Assembly (NCBI RefSeq): GCF_003018255.1
Contig: NZ_CP027440.1
Length of the DNA stretch: 64,000 nt
Strand: one strand, 5' to 3'
Source: Escherichia coli
GTDB lineage: Bacteria > Pseudomonadota > Gammaproteobacteria > Enterobacterales > Enterobacteriaceae
Shown here: positions 1 through 63,872 of the stretch, piece by piece
Layout: every line of letters starts with the position of its first letter
How positions within the stretch are numbered: position 1 is the stretch's first letter
Notes under the pieces: generated by a model
Database searches by the model: none
The model's input: only the letters and a program-made list of their open reading frames with translations
What the model was told of the DNA's origin: nothing
Made by a program: the position numbers and the translations under genes

Positions 1-581
1 CCAAGCGTCACAATGCCAATGGCAGCATCACCCACATTAATGGTCGGCAACGCCATAAATAATGCGCCGACTTTTTGTAGATAATGTTCAGGGACATGGG
101 CCATTTGCAGACCGAGAAAATCTTTAATCTGCATGGTACCGATGGTGATCCCGATACCGGAAGTAAAACCTAAGGTAACGGAAACCGGAATATATTCAAT
201 CAAGCGTCCAAAACGTGCCAGCCCCATCAGGATCAAAAAGACACCTGACATGAGTGTCGCGACCAGCAGTCCTGCCAGTCCAAACTGTTGCGAAACGGGA
301 TAGAGAATTACCACAAATGCCGCAGTCGGACCGGAAACGCTAAAGCGTGACCCACCCGTCAGAGCAATGACAATCCCCGCAACAGCTGCGGTATATAAAC
401 CGTACTGGGGTGCCACACCACTACCAATAGCCAACGCCATTGCCAGCGGGATAGCAATAATCCCGACGGTTATCCCGGCAATCAGGTCACGGGTAAACCG
501 TGCGGCAGTATATTTTTCTTTCCAGCAAGCGTCGATCAGAGCGCGGAAAGGCATCACATGTGAGGAAAATATTTTGTTCAC
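1..581 (-). CDS. dauA: SulP-family C4-dicarboxylate transporter DauA (YchM), N-terminal part; gene continues past window start
   Basis: Minus-strand frame from GTG at 579-581 reads [40 protein letters not shown]..., recognised as the DauA N-terminus; no stop before position 1. ORF-track + ORF 367-600 is its antisense. Confidence 0.8.
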
Positions 582-705
582 AATAATGTTTCATCCGTGA
601 GCGCATCATCTGTCAACTAAATGGCAGGTGAAGGAGGCATAGGTCATACAAATGGATATTACAGACAAAAAAACCCGCCGCAGCGGGTCTTTGAGCCGGG
701 TTCGA

Positions 706-1779
<1,074 letters not shown>

Positions 1780-1803
1780 TCACCGAAACTCAGCTTGCCC
1801 GGC

Positions 1804-2654
1804 TTAAAGCATGGCTCTGTGCAATGGGGAAAGATTAACGCCTTTCGCCACAAAGCCATTGAGCCATTCCGGGGCTTGCTCTAGCACCTGGCGGGCTTCA
1901 GACTCTGTATCAAATTCAGCAAAGACACAGGCCCCTGTCCCAGTCAGGCGCGACGGGGCGTATTCTAACAGCCAGGAAAGCACCGCATCAACCTCGCGAA
2001 AACGTTTTCTTGCGATAACCTCGCAATCATTGCTGAATTCACATTTTAGCAACGTTTCTATTGACCTTTTTGGCGTATTGCGCGGGAGTTCAGGATCTTT
2101 AAAAATCACCGGTGTCGGAATACTTACACCAGGGTGCGCCACCAAGTACCACTTCTCTGGCGGATCCACCGGCGTTAGTATTTCACCAACGCCTTCGGCA
2201 AACGCGGCATGCCCCCGAACAAAGACAGGAACATCTGCGCCCAGCGTCAGCCCCATTTCCGCCAGCTCATCCATGCTTAGCCCGCATTGCCAGAGATGGT
2301 TTAATGCCACCAGCACCGTCGCGGCATTGGATGAACCACCACCCAGACCGCCGCCCATCGGCAAACGCTTGTCAATACTGATTTCTGCACCGCTTCCCGT
2401 AGGAAGACGCCCGCTGTCTGCCGCTGTTTTCATCAGCAACCGTGCTGCGCGAACGATCAGGTTATCTTCATGTTCCACGCCTTCAACGGGTGTTAACAGA
2501 CGAATATCCCCATCGTCACGAAGCTCAATGCTGATGGTGTCGCCGTAATCCAGGAACTGAAACAGCGTTTGCAGCGTGTGGTAACCGTCCGCACGCTGAC
2601 CGGTAATGTATAAAAACAGATTAAGTTTTGCCGGAGAGGGCCACTGTGTCCGCA

Positions 2655-2655
<1 letters not shown>
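1804..2655 (-). CDS. ispE: 4-diphosphocytidyl-2-C-methyl-D-erythritol kinase
   Basis: ORF track 283 aa; GHMP-kinase glycine-rich motif [14 protein letters not shown] visible; position between lolB and prs as in K-12. Confidence 0.93.
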
Positions 2656-3347
<692 letters not shown>

Positions 3348-3491
3348 CTATGTTCAAGTTGTCTTAATTGCCAGAATCTAACGGCTTTCGGCAATTACTC
3401 CAAAAGGGGGCGCTCTCTTTTATTGATCTTACGCATCCTGTATGATGCAAGCAGACTAACCCTATCAACGTTGGTATTATTTCCCGCAGAC

Positions 3492-4748
3492 ATGACCCTT
3501 TTAGCACTCGGTATCAACCATAAAACGGCACCTGTATCGCTGCGAGAACGTGTATCGTTTTCGCCGGATAAGCTCGATCAGGCGCTTGACAGCCTGCTTG
3601 CGCAGCCGATGGTGCAGGGCGGCGTGGTGCTGTCGACGTGCAATCGCACGGAACTTTATCTTAGCGTTGAAGAGCAGGATAACCTGCAAGAGGCGTTAAT
3701 CCGCTGGCTTTGCGATTATCACAATCTTAATGAAGAAGACCTGCGTAAAAGCCTCTACTGGCATCAGGATAACGACGCGGTTAGCCATTTAATGCGTGTT
3801 GCCAGCGGCCTGGATTCACTGGTTTTGGGGGAGCCGCAGATCCTCGGTCAGGTTAAAAAAGCGTTTGCCGATTCGCAAAAAGGCCATATGAAGGCCAGCG
3901 AACTGGAACGCATGTTTCAGAAATCTTTCTCTGTAGCGAAACGTGTTCGCACTGAAACAGATATCGGTGCCAGCGCTGTTTCTGTCGCTTTTGCGGCTTG
4001 TACGCTGGCGCGGCAGATCTTTGAATCGCTCTCTACGGTGACGGTACTGCTGGTGGGTGCGGGCGAAACCATCGAGCTGGTGGCGCGTCATCTGCGCGAA
4101 CACAAAGTACAGAAGATGATTATCGCCAACCGCACTCGCGAACGTGCCCAAATTCTGGCAGATGAAGTCGGCGCGGAAGTTATTGCCCTGAGTGATATCG
4201 ACGAACGTCTGCGCGAAGCCGATATCATCATCAGTTCCACCGCCAGCCCGTTACCGATTATCGGGAAAGGCATGGTGGAGCGCGCATTAAAAAGCCGTCG
4301 CAACCAACCAATGCTGTTGGTGGATATTGCCGTTCCGCGCGATGTTGAGCCGGAAGTTGGCAAACTGGCGAATGCTTATCTTTATAGCGTGGACGATCTG
4401 CAAAGCATCATTTCGCACAACCTGGCGCAGCGTAAAGCCGCAGCGGTTGAGGCGGAAACTATTGTCGCTCAGGAAACCAGCGAATTTATGGCGTGGCTGC
4501 GTGCACAAAGCGCCAGCGAAACCATTCGCGAGTATCGCAGCCAGGCAGAGCACGTTCGCGATGAGTTAACTGCCAAAGCGTTAGCGGCCCTTGAGCAGGG
4601 CGGTGACGCTCAAGCCATTATGCAGGATCTGGCATGGAAACTGACTAACCGCCTGATCCATGCGCCAACGAAATCACTTCAACAGGCCGCCCGTGACGGG
4701 GATAACGAACGCCTGAATATTCTGCGCGACGGCCTCGGGCTGGAGTAG
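3492..4748 (+). CDS. hemA: Glutamyl-tRNA reductase
   Basis: ORF track 3294..4748; start moved to ATG 3492 ([15 protein letters not shown]..., 418 aa). Confidence 0.93.
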
Positions 4749-58500: not shown

Positions 58501-58579
58501 AAGTTCAATGATATTTGCTATTGAATGTACTGTCAGTTCTGTTATATTGTGTACTCAAAGTTCACATTGTGAGGGTGAT
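58501..58579. promoter_or_regulatory. Divergent promoter/operator region of the immunity module (pRM-like and pR-like)
   Basis: Palindrome TTCAAT-N10-ATTGAA at 58504-58525; + strand -35 ttgaat (58521-26) and -10 tatatt (58543-48); minus strand -35 ctgaca and -10 tatcat placing the start within a few nt of the repressor ATG (leaderless). Confidence 0.55.
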
Positions 58580-58846: not shown

Positions 58847-59381
58847 ACAGGTTTGTGAGGCTCTGGATGCCTGGGTATGCCGACCAGGAATGACACAGGA
58901 GCAGGCGACGATATTAATCACGGAAGCATTCTGGGCTCTGAAAGAACGCCCGAACATCGATGTTCAACGCGTCACGTTTAATGATGGCGAGGTTGATCAA
59001 CGGGCGCTGGGCGTTAATCGAGTGAAGATATTCGAACGCTGGAAGGCTATCGACACCAGGGATAAGCGTGAAAAATTCACGGCGCTGATTCCGGCAATTA
59101 TGGAGGCTATCCGGGTAAGTGATTTCAGGTTGTATTGTGAAATTACTGACGGAAAAAGCATTACGTACATGATCGCCGGGTTAAACAAAGAGTATGGCGA
59201 TGTGGTGGAGTCCGGGCTGCTTTTTGCGGATCCAGTTGTTGTGGAACGTGAGACTGATGAGCTTATAGAAAAAGCCATTGCTTTCAAGCGTGCGTATCGT
59301 CAGCAATACCAACATTACTTTGCAGATAAACAAATATCTGTCTGGGGTTCGTATGAGTATCGATGCACTACGATGGGCTAA
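58830..59381 (+). CDS. Hypothetical protein in the CII position of the early-right operon
   Basis: ORF track 183 aa; overlaps the cro-like gene end by 17 nt; family not recognised. Confidence 0.6.
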   Translation: MKITPEQVCEALDAWVCRPGMTQEQATILITEAFWALKERPNIDVQRVTFNDGEVDQRALGVNRVKIFERWKAIDTRDKREKFTALIPAIMEAIRVSDFRLYCEITDGKSITYMIAGLNKEYGDVVESGLLFADPVVVERETDELIEKAIAFKRAYRQQYQHYFADKQISVWGSYEYRCTTMG

Positions 59382-60390
59382 AAAGGTGAAAACCGGCAGT
59401 TCATCCAGTAAGTCAGTATTGACCTGGCTTGCTGATATGTGCGGTGCCGATTTGTGCGCATACCCGTCTATATCTGCACTGGCAGAAGTAACGGAACTGA
59501 ACAAAAAGACTGTGCAGGACAGTTTACGACACCTGATGGAGATTGGGTTAATTGTTGATACTGGTGAGAGAAAAGGCAGAACAAAGCAAATTGTGGTGTA
59601 CCGACTTATCGGTGTAGAAGAAAGTGTTGCCGAGCCTGAATACACCCAAAAACGGGAGTCTTTAAAGGTGGGTAAAATTGGTACTGTTAATAAAAATAGT
59701 ACCGAAAATGGTTATGTTTCAGCACAAAACAGACCCAAAAACGGAACTCTTAGCTGCATGGAAAATAACCAAAGACACCCAAATTTTCCATCAAAGACAC
59801 CCAAAAACGGATCACGGAACCCAAAGGAACCCAAAGATCTAAACCCCACACATAACGCACGCGAGAGTGCTCCGACCAGTGAGCAGGAAGTTTTGTCGTT
59901 ACAGGCAGCGCCCCCTGTATTCTTGGATGGCCTGAGCGAACCCATCGGGAAATTTTCGATGACTACTGTCTGGCAGCCGTCGCTGGATTTTCGACAACGG
60001 GCAGTAGTGTGGGGTATGGCTCTGCCTGAGCCGGAATTTACACCTGCTGAGCTTGCCGCATTCCGGGATTACTGGATGGCGGAGGGGAAGGTTTTCACGC
60101 AGGTTCAGTGGGAGCAGAAATTTGCCCGTCACGTGCAGCACGTCAGGGCACAGGTAAAACCAGTCAGCAAGGGGGTAAGCCATGCAGCATCAGGTGGCAC
60201 GGCATCACGGGCAGTTCAGGAAATCCGGGCAGCACGCGAACAGTGGGAACGTGAAAACGGATTTATCAGCAACGGAAACGGCCTGGAAGCTGTGGGAGCT
60301 TATGGGGGAGGTGTATTCGAACCGCTGGACTCAGAAGAATGGGGCCGCACCTTCGAAGCTCTGGATTGCCCAGATTGGTGCGATGACTGA
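59353..60390 (+). CDS. Phage replication initiation protein (lambda O functional position; HTH N-terminus)
   Basis: Internal ATG 59353 of ORF 59278..60390 with SD gggg; N-terminus MSIDALRWAKKVKTG... typical of phage replication-initiator HTH domains. Confidence 0.65.
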   Translation: MSIDALRWAKKVKTGSSSSKSVLTWLADMCGADLCAYPSISALAEVTELNKKTVQDSLRHLMEIGLIVDTGERKGRTKQIVVYRLIGVEESVAEPEYTQKRESLKVGKIGTVNKNSTENGYVSAQNRPKNGTLSCMENNQRHPNFPSKTPKNGSRNPKEPKDLNPTHNARESAPTSEQEVLSLQAAPPVFLDGLSEPIGKFSMTTVWQPSLDFRQRAVVWGMALPEPEFTPAELAAFRDYWMAEGKVFTQVQWEQKFARHVQHVRAQVKPVSKGVSHAASGGTASRAVQEIRAAREQWERENGFISNGNGLEAVGAYGGGVFEPLDSEEWGRTFEALDCPDWCDD

Positions 60391-60844
60391 ACAGCAAATC
60401 CGTCTGGTCTGCCGTCAGTGCATGGACCGCTGCCGGGCGGGTGAAACGTGGCCCCCGGACCTGGCTGAGTTTGTTGCGCTGATTTCGGAGAGTGGGGCAA
60501 ATCCATTTGGTCTTACGGTGGATGCCGTGATGGAAGAGTACCGGCGCTGGCGCAATGAATCCTGGCGATACGACGGGAGTGATAAATACCCGTGGCCACA
60601 GCCTGTGCTGTACCACATCTGCCTCGAAATGCGTACCAGAGGGATTGAGCGCCAGATGACGCAGGGTGAGTTAAAACGACTTGCGGAACGGCAACTGACG
60701 AAATGGGCAAAGCATGTTGGTAACGGGATGAGTGTTCCGCCAGTGCGACGACAACTGGAAGGGGCGAAACACCCGAAAGGGCCAACGCCAATTGAACGGC
60801 TGAAACAGGAATACGAACGCCGGAAGGCTGCTGGTTTTGTTTGA
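60182..60844 (+). CDS. Lambda P-like replication protein (helicase loader)
   Basis: ORF track 220 aa; segments WIAQIGAMTEQQIRLVCRQ, PDLAEFVALI, YPWPQPVLYHI, MTQGELKRLAERQL parallel my memory of lambda P; ATG 60182 has SD aagggggt. Alternative starts 60302 or 60383. Confidence 0.6.
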   Translation: MQHQVARHHGQFRKSGQHANSGNVKTDLSATETAWKLWELMGEVYSNRWTQKNGAAPSKLWIAQIGAMTEQQIRLVCRQCMDRCRAGETWPPDLAEFVALISESGANPFGLTVDAVMEEYRRWRNESWRYDGSDKYPWPQPVLYHICLEMRTRGIERQMTQGELKRLAERQLTKWAKHVGNGMSVPPVRRQLEGAKHPKGPTPIERLKQEYERRKAAGFV

Positions 60845-60877: not shown

Positions 60878-61594
60878 ATGGAAACCGTATTTGACGCACT
60901 GAAAGCACTGAAAAGAGCCTCTTCACAGGTAGTGGCGGCCCGCCTTGGAATCAGCCGTGAAGATGCGGTCAACGAACTGTGGAAACTGAAGCGCCGTGGT
61001 GAAGCGGATAACAAGGGGTCGATGTGGTGGCTGACTCAGGCAGGTGAAAGTGAACCAGTGTCACCGGTACCGAAAGTGACAGCGCAAATGCTGACTGAGG
61101 CGATTGAACAACATGGCCCACAAACGGCGGATGAGCTGGCACTTATGTTCGGGATTACCTCCCGCCGGGCGAATTCATCGCTGGCCATGGCAATCAGCAA
61201 AGGGCGTCTGATTCGCGTAAATCAGGGCGGTAAATTTCGTTACTGCATACCGGGCGCTGATTTACCGGCAGAGCCGGAAGCTGCATCCGTAGCGGAAACC
61301 GATGGTAAAGCCTTTCCTCAGCCAGCAGGTGTTGCGTTACCAGTCCAGGAAACGACGACACAGGAAGAAATGAAAACAGAAATCGTGGAAGACATTGTGA
61401 AGTTACAGCCATCGGTCACCGAAACGAAAGCAGATGACCTGATTCTACCATCGCTGCATGTGGCTAACCGCGAGCTGCGCCGGGCAAAAGGTCAGGTTCA
61501 GAAGTGGGAGCGAGTCTGCGCCGCGCTGCGGGAGCTGAACAAGTGCCGGGATATTCTCCGGGATATTACCGCCACCAGAGAACAGCAGCGGTGA
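60878..61594 (+). CDS. Hypothetical prophage protein with two winged-helix-like segments
   Basis: ORF track 60860..61594; ATG 60878 preceded by SD ggagga at 7-nt spacing. Confidence 0.6.
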
Positions 61595-61908
61595 GTGGGT
61601 GGAAGACGTGGTGCCGGGCTGAAATTCTGATACTCCGGCAGTGCGCGGGAACAATGAAGGTAAAAAGCATTGGCGCACTTATCGGACGAACTGAAGCGGC
61701 AGTGAGAACGAAGGCACGGGAGTTGGGCATCAGCATGATGTTACGTGGTGATTTTCACCCGTCGGCAAAATATTCTCAGCGTGATATTGAGCTGGCGCGG
61801 CAACTGCATCAGAGAGGCATGCAAAGAAGGGAAATTGCCAGAAAATTAGGCATGCCGCTGCGCATAGTGAATAACTACGTTTATTTCGACAGGAGGGTTC
61901 AGGCGTGA
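61591..61908 (+). CDS. Hypothetical HTH DNA-binding protein
   Basis: ORF track 61504..61908; GTG 61591 overlaps the upstream stop (GTGA); HTH-like segments [20 protein letters not shown] and [15 protein letters not shown]; start uncertain. Confidence 0.5.
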
Positions 61909-62210
61909 GGGTGAGCATTTATATCGCCGGTCCAATGACGGGATATGAAAATTTCAACCGCGAGGCGTTTCACAGGGCGGAAGAAGCACTGAAACGGGAA
62001 GGGCATACCGTTTTAAACCCGGCAGTACTTCCGGACGGGCTGACTCAGCCGCAGTACATGGATATTTGCATGGCAATGATTCGTTGTGTGGATGCGGTTT
62101 ATATGCTGAAAGGCTGGCAGCGATCGGCAGGCGCTAAGGCAGAACTGGCACTGGCGGAGAAACTGGGACATGCGGTTATTTTCCAGGAGGCAACCAGTGA
62201 GCGAAATTAA
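61905..62210 (+). CDS. Nucleoside 2-deoxyribosyltransferase-like protein (DUF4406-type)
   Basis: ORF track 101 aa; N-terminus [13 protein letters not shown]...NPA fits the Rossmann-like IYxAGP signature of that superfamily; GTG start with SD aggaggg, GTGA-coupled to the upstream gene. Confidence 0.5.
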   Translation: MRVSIYIAGPMTGYENFNREAFHRAEEALKREGHTVLNPAVLPDGLTQPQYMDICMAMIRCVDAVYMLKGWQRSAGAKAELALAEKLGHAVIFQEATSERN

Positions 62211-62359
62211 TTACCAGGAGCTACGGCAGGTGAAAGAGAAAGCATAATCCAGATCTGAATAATTAAAATCAGCACTGTAAATAAAATTTAATCCTTAACC
62301 GGAGGGATTTCTGCACCCTCAGAACATCAGGAGACCGCCAGAAAGGGCGGTAATGAAAA

Positions 62360-62728
62360 ATGACTGAATTAACAAAAGAGCAATTAATCAAAGAAGCCAA
62401 ATTAAAAATAGCGGTTGCGAAATGTTACCCTAATTCAGAGATGGCCAGGGTAGAGGGAGAGCTATTCAAAATTGCACTGGCATCGCTGGAGGCGGTTCCG
62501 GTGGCATGGCTGCATTCAGACAATGGCCTGGGTATTCCAGCAATAACCAGGAGTAAAAACGTTGCTGATAGTTGGTTATCAAAGGGCTGGTATGTTCAGC
62601 CGTTATATGTAGCCCAACCTGTACCGGTGGTGCCGGATGCTCGTCCATCTTTAAATAATGGCATTGTCGGATTTGATGAAGGCTGGAATGCCTGCCGGGA
62701 TGCCATGCTTAATGGAGATAAATCATGA
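62360..62728 (+). CDS. Hypothetical protein (122 aa), first gene of a coupled three-gene cassette
   Basis: ORF track; no recognisable motif; stop overlaps the next start (ATGA at 62725-62728). Confidence 0.6.
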   Translation: MTELTKEQLIKEAKLKIAVAKCYPNSEMARVEGELFKIALASLEAVPVAWLHSDNGLGIPAITRSKNVADSWLSKGWYVQPLYVAQPVPVVPDARPSLNNGIVGFDEGWNACRDAMLNGDKS

Positions 62729-63426
62729 TTAATCGTATCAAACTGGAGCACATCCTCGAATATGCCGGGCAGCAGAGGCATATTGGTCAGCATTGTAAAA
62801 TTCCACCAGGAGATATGGTTGAAATCATGGAGATTGCCATGCGCAAGGCTGGCAACCCTCCGGTAACTCCGGGGCGTTTGCCTGGCGGTTTCACCATTGA
62901 GGAGGCGAAGGAGTTACATGAAGACCTGGTGCGCAGCCACATAAGCAAGGCTTTAAGTGGCGAAAAGATGAAGAAGAAGGATCTCGATGCTGATTTGCGC
63001 TGGATCCATGGGGTTATAGTCCAGGCCGCTTGGTTTGTAAAAGCATCACTGGAGCAGAATGTGCTAACGGGTAACTCTCAGGTAATCCCTGATGACGGTC
63101 GCGAACAGTTTGAAACACTTATCAGGTTCCATGCAGATGATAAAAACCATGAAACATTATTGCTTCGTGCTAACGAAGGGATGAATTACCGGGATCCAAA
63201 TGTGGATTTGGCATGGATATTCTGGAAATCCAGTCGAGAGCACATATTGCCTGGAAAAAGCGACAATAATCCAGCATCAGGCGATCAGGTAAGTGAATTA
63301 ACAATGTGGGTGAAGCGGTTATCTCATTCCTTAAAAAGCGTTAATAAATCAAGCAAACTACCGGATAAAGCGATGGACTACCTGAAGCGAAACGGACTGA
63401 TAAACGAGGAGAATATTTTACGATGA
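62725..63426 (+). CDS. Hypothetical protein (233 aa), second gene of the cassette
   Basis: ORF track; SD ggaga 6 nt upstream; no recognisable motif; stop overlaps the next start (ATGA at 63423-63426). Confidence 0.65.
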   Translation: MINRIKLEHILEYAGQQRHIGQHCKIPPGDMVEIMEIAMRKAGNPPVTPGRLPGGFTIEEAKELHEDLVRSHISKALSGEKMKKKDLDADLRWIHGVIVQAAWFVKASLEQNVLTGNSQVIPDDGREQFETLIRFHADDKNHETLLLRANEGMNYRDPNVDLAWIFWKSSREHILPGKSDNNPASGDQVSELTMWVKRLSHSLKSVNKSSKLPDKAMDYLKRNGLINEENILR

Positions 63427-63506: not shown

Positions 63507-63659
63507 AAACGGTTTGCGGGGAAAGAAGAGTTAAGTAGAATTGCTGCGGGTGCTTGAGGCTGTCTGCCTCGGGCATGCCGCCGTAAGGCAGACAGAGAAA
63601 AGCCCCAGTTAACATTACGCGTCTTGCAGGACGCTTAACATTAATCTGAGGCCCAATCT

Positions 63660-63872
63660 ATGCTTCACAAACGTAGGTTAGCCTCTTACGTGCCGAAAGG
63701 CAAGGAGAAGCAGGCTATGAAGCAGCAAAAGGCGATGTTAATCGCCCTGATCGTCATCTGTATTACCGTTGTTGTGACGGCACTGGTAACGAGGAAAGAC
63801 CTCTGCGAGGTACGAATCCGAACCGGCCAGACGGAGGTCGCTGTCTTCGTAGACTACGAATCTGAGAAGTAA
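63660..63872 (+). CDS. mok: Mok-like reading frame (N-terminally extended frame required for hok translation)
   Basis: ORF track 70 aa MLHKRRLASYVPKGKEKQAMKQQKAM..., parallel to recalled K-12 MokC; same frame as hok. Confidence 0.5.
   Translation: MLHKRRLASYVPKGKEKQAMKQQKAMLIALIVICITVVVTALVTRKDLCEVRIRTGQTEVAVFVDYESEK
63717..63872 (+). CDS. hok: Hok/Gef-family type I toxin (HokD/RelF-like, 51 aa)
   Basis: MKQQKAMLIALIVICITVVVTALVTRKDLCEVRIRTGQTEVAVFVDYESEK is near-identical to recalled HokD/HokC; SD aaggagaag upstream of ATG 63717. Confidence 0.85.
   Translation: MKQQKAMLIALIVICITVVVTALVTRKDLCEVRIRTGQTEVAVFVDYESEK

Follow-up and report, generated by a model that had tools for sequence, protein, structure and literature searches.

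DNPH1, also called Rcl, relies on a catalytic triad made of Y24, D80, and E104, in which E104 is the nucleophile and D80 the general acid (PMC10603095). The 5'-phosphate is bound by S98, while a second ligand, S128', is provided by the partner subunit, and the choice of the sugar depends on one aromatic residue: Tyr (DNPH1 Y24) selects deoxyribose, Phe (MilB F17) selects ribose, and the F17Y substitution in MilB reverses this preference (PMC10603095). On the side of the 5' group, nucleoside transferases hold the 5'-OH through Asp or Asn, whereas nucleotide hydrolases have small uncharged residues at that place (PMC12884076). The same study showed that DUF5664, the dATP/dGTP diphosphohydrolase N-terminal domain, converts dNTPs to dNMPs, and that DmtZ, which is covered by no Pfam model, is tied to 2-aminoadenine genomes and is devoid of the Asp/Asn ligands of the 5'-OH, acts after a dNTP diphosphatase that is either fused to it or adjacent (PMC12884076). 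Finally, hydrolysis of NAD(P)+ has been reported for the nucleoside 2-deoxyribosyltransferase (NDT)-like effector of retron-Eco1.

As regards DUF4406 (PF14359), the literature on this family yielded neither a functional study nor a measured activity for any member, and a 2025 metaGPA preprint is concerned with the PF05014 NDTs of 2-aminoadenine phages and not with DUF4406. The names under which family members are deposited in GenBank conflict with each other (hydrolase, nucleoside deoxyribosyltransferase, dCMP deaminase, CMP N-glycosidase, and MazG-like pyrophosphatase). The present work deals with one DUF4406 gene, found in a window of 64,000 nucleotides of Escherichia coli DNA (the whole stretch that was analyzed). 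The family is already catalogued in Pfam, PHROGs, and RefSeq, and the gene as such is therefore not a new finding. What is new is a prediction at the residue level, built on a nucleotide-type Ser, a deoxy-type Tyr, and the nucleophile, which are kept, and on the general acid and the C-terminal segment, which are absent, together with the fusions to NTP pyrophosphohydrolases and the lack of any conserved partner gene among the loci surveyed.

The DUF4406 Gene and Its Conservation

The coding sequence occupies positions 61905..62210 of the + strand, from a GTG start codon to a TAA stop codon at 62208-62210. Its 101-aa product begins with (M) and 12 further residues (letters not shown) and carries the NPA motif at residues 38-40, so that coordinates, translation, and motif all agree with the initial annotation. 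A Shine-Dalgarno-like AGGAGG can be read from the sequence at 61891..61896 (+), 8 nt 5' of the GTG. Besides, the GTG (61905-61907) overlaps the TGA (61906-61908) ending the upstream helix-turn-helix (HTH) ORF, and with this GTGA start/stop overlap at 61905..61908 (+), the GTGA coupling to the HTH gene noted earlier is real: translation of the DUF4406 gene would probably be coupled to that of its upstream neighbor.

The product matches Pfam DUF4406 over the full length of the model, with residues 4-93 aligned to profile positions 2-91 of 91 (E = 1.3e-36, 125.3 bits against a cutoff of 22). This match is far beyond chance and bears out the DUF4406-type label that had been given to the gene before any database search. 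PHROG 355, named 'nucleoside 2-deoxyribosyltransferase', is matched as well (E = 7e-47), while the DUF1937 model gives a marginal hit of 23 bits, exactly at its cutoff, and the Nuc_deoxyrib_tr model (PF05014) stays at 17.8 bits, under its cutoff of 28.8. No match to the product was obtained with NCBIfam or with the PADLOC models. RefSeq holds a 100% identical product, WP_001376361.1 ('DUF4406 domain-containing protein'), and the same RefSeq CDS is present in identical prophages.

Matches to the gene at 80% nucleotide identity or more (megablast) occur in 1220 of the 5426 complete E. coli genomes, about one fifth, and 'rac19' of phage Rac-SA53 is a copy that is 92% identical to it. The alleles are under purifying selection, the median pairwise dN/dS being 0.09 for 26 distinct alleles. 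Taken together, these data show that the gene is real, well conserved, and borne by prophages.

Position in the Early Operon of a Rac-Like Prophage

The host element is a Rac-like lambdoid prophage, whose rightward early operon successively comprises genes for repressor/Cro-like proteins, a YdaT-like protein, an O-like protein with a DnaT domain, a P-like helicase loader, DUF1627, a small HTH protein, and DUF4406. On the 3' side, the DUF4406 gene is followed by two Ea22-like ORFs and then by hok, DUF968, RusA, and Q. The region between the P-like gene and hok/RusA/Q is the equivalent of the nin region, and the gene lies between these landmarks, in the replication/nin region where the initial annotation had placed it. 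No PurZ-type gene was found in the examined region of this prophage.

The upstream HTH gene (61591..61908, +) belongs to PHROG 323, that of a 'D5-like' regulator, and is a neighbor rather than a conserved partner. Its likely start is the GTG at 61591, which overlaps the stop codon of the DUF1627 gene, with an ATG at 61654 as an alternative; a homologue of this protein starts with MSWRGWGRAEI. A start at GTG 61591 over the DUF1627 stop would give a chain of coupled genes. Neither of the two downstream ORFs, at 62360-62728 and 62725-63426, has a Pfam or NCBIfam match, so that 'unknown cassette', the name under which they had been described, is a fair label.

A consensus scan pointed to a PR-like site at 58521..58548 (+) as a candidate promoter from which the rightward early operon would be transcribed. 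Since the same scan detected no promoter-like and no convincing terminator-like site between 58521-58548 and position 61905, expression of the DUF4406 gene together with the replication genes would be the simplest reading.

Family Extent and Predicted Fold

Few accessory families of phages are as widespread as DUF4406. An exhaustive search gave 12,003 clusters (50% identity) with E <= 1e-3, and tblastn with an actinophage member as the query matched 679 phage records, mostly of Mycobacterium, Arthrobacter, Gordonia, Vibrio, and Pseudomonas phages. Hundreds of phages that infect Proteobacteria, Actinobacteria, and gut bacteria carry relatives. In an alignment of 110 diverse representatives, G9, F22, S74, G76, and E80 are invariant, and I7, G13, N18, G33, P39, P43, G45, Y51, M58, L68, W71, A77, and A84 are nearly so.

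The AlphaFold2 model computed from this 110-sequence alignment is confident (pLDDT 95, pTM 0.86); it comprises b1 (residues 4-8), a1 (15-31), b2 (35-37), a2 (48-60), b3 (64-67), a3 (75-87), and b4 (90-93), and displays a three-layer alpha/beta fold with a parallel sheet that can be superposed on NDT, DNPH1, and MilB. Among the structural relatives, the tabulated values are 12.3 for PA1492/DUF1937 (1T1J), 11.5 for MilB, 10.5-11.1 for four nucleoside 2-deoxyribosyltransferases, 8-10 for TIR domains, 9.1 for Rcl/DNPH1, and 8.2 for YtoQ. In the same line, a profile search of the PDB sequences retrieved the NDT from T. brucei as the best match (E = 2.6e-4), followed by weaker matches to BlsM, the L. 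mexicana NDT, BcmB, MilB, and PA1492. These relatives are detectable with a profile and not with a single sequence, as a single-sequence search of the PDB with the product returned chance matches to Mediator subunits only.

The structural relatives and the PDB profile matches, along with the Pfam assignment, support the membership of the Rossmann-like NDT superfamily that had been suggested from the sequence, and the fold is NDT-like rather than an unrelated one. More precisely, the product is a minimal member, with four strands and four helices, of the NDT-like ('DrHyd') Rossmannoid superfamily. The LOG (Lysine_decarbox) family model did not place it among the LOG/SLOG phosphoribohydrolases, and the TIR family model and the search for a defence/signalling context did not identify it as a TIR NADase.

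Active-Site Residues

The residues were mapped by HMM alignments to the T. brucei enzyme (TbPDT), BlsM, BcmB, and MilB and by hhalign to human DNPH1, whose sequence was confirmed against PDB entries. The mappings agree, the hhalign score against DNPH1 being weak (E 0.097).

The nucleophile is represented by Glu80 (codon 62142..62144, +), located at the start of the helix that follows the G-x-x-x-E loop and aligned with DNPH1 E104, MilB E103, and the corresponding Glu of BlsM and TbPDT. It is found in 110/110 representatives and, among the 456 members, in 439 of 441 aligned sequences. Ser74 (codon 62124..62126, +), which opens the S-x-G-x-x-x-E motif, aligns with the phosphate ligands S98 of DNPH1 and S97 of MilB and is kept in every non-gap sequence, both in the 110-sequence alignment and among the 456 members; it would thus represent the phosphate-type Ser of nucleotide N-glycosidases. 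The acidic or amide 5'-OH ligand of the canonical transferases (D-x-G-x-x-x-E) is replaced by this Ser, as illustrated by D-C-G-T-A-F-E in TbPDT versus S-x-G-A-x-x-E in DUF4406. Among the 456 members, no more than two of the aligned sequences deviate at S74, G76, or E80, and such conservation across phyla is the pattern expected of a catalytic site. Finally, the aromatic residue of strand 1, a Phe in BlsM and MilB, is Tyr6 (codon 61920..61922, +), aligned with DNPH1 Y24 and MilB F17; 94% of the 456 members have Tyr at this position and 5% have Phe.

The situation is different at the general-acid position of the helix preceding strand 3, where DNPH1 D80, the Asp of MilB and BlsM, and the Asn of TbPDT are aligned with Cys55 (codon 62067..62069, +), a placement resting on three independent alignments. 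Among the 456 unique members, this position is C in 78%, A in 7%, D in 6%, and G in 4%. Since C, A, or G occupies it in ~90% of them, the canonical Tyr-Asp-Glu triad is incomplete, although Asp is found there in the actinophage members Zelink, Aminay, MalagasyRose, and Phives. Besides, the second phosphate ligand (DNPH1 S128', MilB R23) has no counterpart, Thr12 being found at the R23/R30 position. In the AlphaFold2 model, the chain stops ~13 residues past helix 3 and strand 4. What the solved relatives have beyond strand 4 is missing, including the C-terminal segment by which their active site is completed and the helical extension by which DNPH1 supplies S128' to its partner. Near the glycine-rich loop, Thr/Ser12 (89% of the 456 members) and Arg/Lys19 (87%) may help to hold the phosphate, thereby substituting for the second ligand.

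The missing general acid is both the main caveat and the most interesting feature of the family. Without it, the protein could turn over ordinary purine or pyrimidine dNMPs poorly or not at all. Possibly, the preferred base leaves without protonation, or the proton is given by another residue, with Tyr51 and Asn38 as candidates, or by the partner subunit; a loss or change of the chemistry in the Cys55 clade is also possible.

Genomic Neighbors and Domain Fusions

Viral contigs were scanned three times, with enterobacterial, actinobacterial/mixed, and gut-phage members as seeds, and this yielded 240 loci, of which 214 are non-redundant. The 1617 genes located within four positions of DUF4406 in these 214 loci fall into 865 clusters, and the neighbor census revealed no conserved partner gene among them. 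The upstream HTH gene was considered as a partner and rejected, as only 12 of 80 close loci have it before DUF4406 and 4 have it after; elsewhere, DUF977/LygF or other genes replace it beside DUF4406. The recurrent neighbors are DnaB, O-like and DnaC-like proteins, SSB, an exonuclease, and RusA, and this placement in an early replication/recombination module is observed in phages of Escherichia, Vibrio, Aeromonas, Arthrobacter, Gordonia, and Mycobacterium. Two metagenome contigs are ~1 kb or less in length and provide no usable context.

Genes for DNA methyltransferases, belonging to the Dam (PF05869), Dcm (PF00145), and MT-A70 (PF05063) families, also occur beside DUF4406. Motif detection, with no matched baseline, finds them in 5-6% of the cases at positions -1 and -2 versus 0-3% elsewhere, and 79% of the loci have no methyltransferase within 5 kb. 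The adjacency is real but weak, and methyltransferase and DUF4406 are not considered to form a system. A possible role as S-adenosylhomocysteine nucleosidase, prompted by these neighbors, was not retained, given that a deoxynucleotide fits better with Tyr6 and the phosphate-type Ser.

As to fusions, the 50 longest close homologues contain no informative enzyme domain, only DUF551, an XRE-type HTH, and DUF7768. The extensions of close homologues correspond to Ea22-like mosaic modules or to over-extended ORFs. More distant relatives provide fusions of another kind. In mycobacteriophage Zelink, gp157 (241 aa) combines DUF4406 at residues 7-111 with a C-terminal MazG-like domain, which is recognized by PRA-PH (PF01503; 21.5 bits versus a cutoff of 21.3), by the MazG-like NTP pyrophosphohydrolase DR2231 (E = 2e-6), and by phrog_12019 and phrog_671. 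In addition, a Foldseek search of the BFVD found DUF4406-like domains with 41% and 32% identity to the query within proteins named 'dATP/dGTP diphosphohydrolase N-terminal domain', and one more relative fused to DUF4326. The MazG-like and DUF5664 partners make (d)NMP, which is the proposed substrate. However, these fusions come from actinophage and uncultured clades, of which at least Zelink keeps Asp at position 55, so that they may not speak for the Cys55 clade. Another apparent case, Phives gp30, proved to be a stand-alone DUF4406 protein of 122 aa, which makes its name, 'MazG-like pyrophosphatase', a mis-annotation.

Proposed Function and Alternative Explanations

The DUF4406 protein is proposed to work as a stand-alone 2'-deoxynucleoside 5'-monophosphate N-glycosidase that is expressed early, acts by double displacement through Glu80, and alters or cleans the deoxynucleotide pool, a reading to which we assign a probability of about one half. 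Glu80 would attack C1' and form a covalent (deoxy)ribosyl-5-phosphate-enzyme intermediate, which water would then resolve. The 5'-phosphate would be held by Ser74, by the glycine-rich GPMTG loop with its Thr12, and possibly by Arg19, while Tyr6 would disfavor a 2'-OH. As it would share the early rightward promoter with the replication genes and be translationally coupled to the gene upstream, the gene would be expressed at the time of phage DNA replication, and it is on this early co-transcription and coupling that the proposed reshaping or cleaning of the deoxynucleotide pool is based. Catalysis, the preferences for phosphate and deoxyribose, and the role in the pool are all predicted properties.

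Several other explanations have to be weighed against this dNMP N-glycosidase. The protein could be a true nucleoside 2-deoxyribosyltransferase (EC 2.4.2.6) swapping bases between free deoxynucleosides, as the name carried by PHROG 355 and by many phage annotations implies. Such names are similarity-based and, with hydrolase, dCMP deaminase, MazG-like, and CMP N-glycosidase used for the same family, mutually contradictory. Moreover, the score under the PF05014 cutoff, the Ser74 standing where nucleoside enzymes have an Asp in contact with the 5'-OH, and the loss of both the general acid and the C-terminal part completing the NDT active site make this activity very unlikely. A glycohydrolase of NAD+, NMN, or an ADP-ribose derivative, which might serve as a counter-defence against NAD-derived signals or to manipulate NAD metabolism, would be consistent with the lost acid, since its leaving group needs no protonation; it would also agree with the resemblance to TIR domains and with the report that the retron-Eco1 effector hydrolyses NAD(P)+. 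Nevertheless, Tyr6 is predicted to disfavor ribose, PADLOC recognizes nothing in the product, no defence, anti-defence, or NAD-salvage gene is co-localized in the 214 loci, DrHyd NADases are reported to be under-represented in viruses (PMC9503650), and the verified fusions are to dNTP/NTP pyrophosphohydrolases, so that we regard an NAD-type activity as unlikely.

It could also be argued that the chemistry has been lost and that the protein is a non-catalytic nucleotide binder, acting as a sensor, a sponge, or a decoy subunit for an NDT-like protein of the host. The incomplete triad, the very small size of a protein without the segment that completes its partner, and the inactive DrHyd, SLOG, and TIR sensor domains described previously (PMC9503650) fit with this idea, as does the mild enrichment of methyltransferase genes, one of which, the phage Dcm, triggers retron-Eco1 with its NDT effector. 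However, most loci have no methyltransferase nearby, the family, with its many actinophage members, is far wider than the retron NDT effectors, and in some of its members the Y-D-E triad is complete; that Glu80, Ser74, and Gly76 do not vary from phylum to phylum also weighs against a mere binder, which appears highly improbable. Finally, a narrower form of the N-glycosidase reading can be put forward, though only tentatively and with odds well below even: DUF4406 might be a phage counterpart of human DNPH1, a pool sanitiser, and would then be a minimal dNMP N-glycosidase that dispenses with the general-acid Asp. This could make it suited to non-canonical or modified deoxynucleotides with easily leaving bases, or to those that phage exonucleases free from methylated DNA, and such targets could account for the slight tendency of DNA methyltransferase genes to lie nearby. 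If so, the enzyme would keep non-canonical nucleotides out of the replicating phage DNA.

The prediction of a dNMP N-glycosidase with Glu80 as the nucleophile, Ser74 as the phosphate ligand, and no general acid is concrete and ready for assays. If true, a very large phage protein family would receive a function, and many annotations would be put right. Should the substrate be a modified or damaged nucleotide, this would add a pool-sanitising step to the replication of temperate phages, while an NAD-derived molecule would make the protein a new counter-defence enzyme.

Comparison with Known Systems

PA1492/DUF1937 (PDB 1T1J), a structural-genomics protein, is 18% identical to DUF4406 and adds no mechanism. 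The canonical NDTs of PF05014, such as the L. leichmannii NDT (1F8X) and the T. brucei PDT (2A0K), differ in several respects: DUF4406 remains under the PF05014 gathering score, and these enzymes have Asp, not Ser, before the Glu motif, use Asp or Asn as the general acid, extend a C-terminal segment into the active site of the neighboring subunit, and act on unphosphorylated nucleosides. The effector of retron-Eco1 (Ec86) has conserved Ser100 and Glu106 residues that are spaced like Ser74 and Glu80 of DUF4406, but is a two-lobed, host-encoded protein of bacterial defence that assembles with RT-msDNA filaments, whereas DUF4406 is encoded by a phage early gene.

Among MilB, BcmB, and BlsM (CMP and hydroxymethyl-CMP N-glycosidases; PDB 4OHR, 4JEN, and 5VTO), MilB has the phosphate Ser and the nucleophile Glu in common with DUF4406. 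The latter bears Tyr, Cys, and Thr in place of the Phe (ribose preference), Asp acid, and Arg23 ligand of these enzymes, and is found in phage early operons rather than in antibiotic biosynthesis clusters. With DNPH1/Rcl (2'-deoxynucleoside 5'-phosphate N-hydrolase; PDB 2KHZ, 4FYH, and 8QHQ), the family shares the Glu, the Tyr, and the Ser, the similarity being detectable only from profile to sequence (E ~0.1). DNPH1 D80 corresponds to Cys55, the E55/H56 pair is absent with N38-P39-A40 conserved instead, and DUF4406, which is ~50 residues shorter, lacks the helical extension with S128'.

DmtZ, from Z-genome phages such as Gordonia phage Ghobes, is a phage enzyme of the NDT superfamily that hydrolyses dAMP (PMC12884076). 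With ~145 aa, five strands, and Asn77 as the general acid, it differs from DUF4406. The DmtZ-DutZ fusion of Arthrobacter phage Wayne parallels the architecture of Zelink gp157, where DUF4406 is joined to a MazG-like domain, and the DutZ-DmtZ pair, in which a dNTP diphosphatase feeds a dAMP hydrolase, follows the same logic as the DUF4406 fusions.

Gene boundaries in the rightward operon

Upstream of the DUF4406 gene, the mechanical ORF list places the O-like (DnaT-domain) gene at 59341-60390 and the P-like gene at 60182-60844, both on the plus strand, and these longest ORFs share around 200 nt. Since the RefSeq start of the P-like gene corresponds to position 60383, which reduces the overlap with the O-like gene to just 8 nt, the long P-like ORF is probably over-extended at its 5' end.

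Further along the operon, on the same strand, genes are joined by a series of 4-nt start/stop overlaps: GTG 61591 with the TGA stop of the DUF1627 gene at 61592-61594 (overlap 61591-61594), GTG 61905 with the stop of the HTH gene (61905-61908), and ATG 62725 with the stop of the ORF 62360-62728 (62725-62728). Because GTG 61591 overlaps the DUF1627 stop, a start at this codon is implied for the HTH gene, with a predicted product of about 105 aa, whose N-terminus resembles that of homologues beginning MSWRGWGRAEI. The RefSeq annotation of an identical prophage gives a shorter HTH product of 93 aa.

Genes downstream of DUF4406

The two plus-strand ORFs that follow DUF4406, at 62360-62728 (PHROG 5117) and 62725-63426 (PHROG 924), are intact in the window, have no Pfam match and are composed of Ea22-like mosaic modules; megablast locates a mosaic junction near 62352-62469. 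In a RefSeq genome carrying an identical DUF4406 gene, the downstream region is annotated as two pseudogenes flagged as incomplete, followed by a shorter hypothetical gene. One of these pseudogenes is named 'valyl-tRNA synthetase', an odd name that is apparently an artefact of annotation. A Hok/Mok-type toxin ORF containing MKQQKAMLIALIVICITVVVTALVTRKDLCEVRIRTGQTEVAVF occupies 63660-63872 (plus strand) at the window's right end, with a promoter-like site at 63635-63664; strain 05-3629 carries an identical prophage in which this ORF is annotated as hokD.

DNA methyltransferase neighbours

Among the 214 non-redundant IMG/VR loci (from L010-L249), DNA methyltransferase genes lie directly upstream of DUF4406 in 5-6%, versus 0-3% at other positions near DUF4406, which serve as the reference and are not a matched baseline. 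These methyltransferases belong to unrelated families (Dam PF05869, Dcm PF00145 and MT-A70 PF05063), and most of the 214 loci have no such gene. Further loci with both genes are found in Gordonia phage Gudmit (gp63-gp64; L251) and Aeromonas phage 56 (gp11/gp09; L004).

Names and domain fusions of DUF4406 proteins

Phage records give conflicting names to stand-alone DUF4406 genes, examples being gp50 of Arthrobacter phage Galaxy and gp30 of Arthrobacter phage Phives. The names in use are deoxycytidylate deaminase, MazG-like pyrophosphatase, CMP N-glycosidase, hydrolase and nucleoside deoxyribosyltransferase, and among the records compared none of them has an assay basis.

Other homologues are longer. 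In a clade from human-gut viral contigs (L176-L231), DUF4406 is followed by a Cys-rich extension of around 85 aa (CxxC...CxxC) without Pfam match, the ORF of L231, for example, reaching 176 aa. At one locus (L171:2535-4007), an upstream PAPS_reduct (PP-loop) domain and DUF4406 share one uninterrupted reading frame. Finally, the two-domain gp157 of Mycobacterium phage Zelink (L252:2486-3211) combines an N-terminal DUF4406 domain bearing the complete Tyr-Asp-Glu triad with a C-terminal MazG-like, DR2231-like NTP pyrophosphohydrolase domain (E = 2e-6), and would be a candidate for converting dNTP to free base on a single polypeptide.
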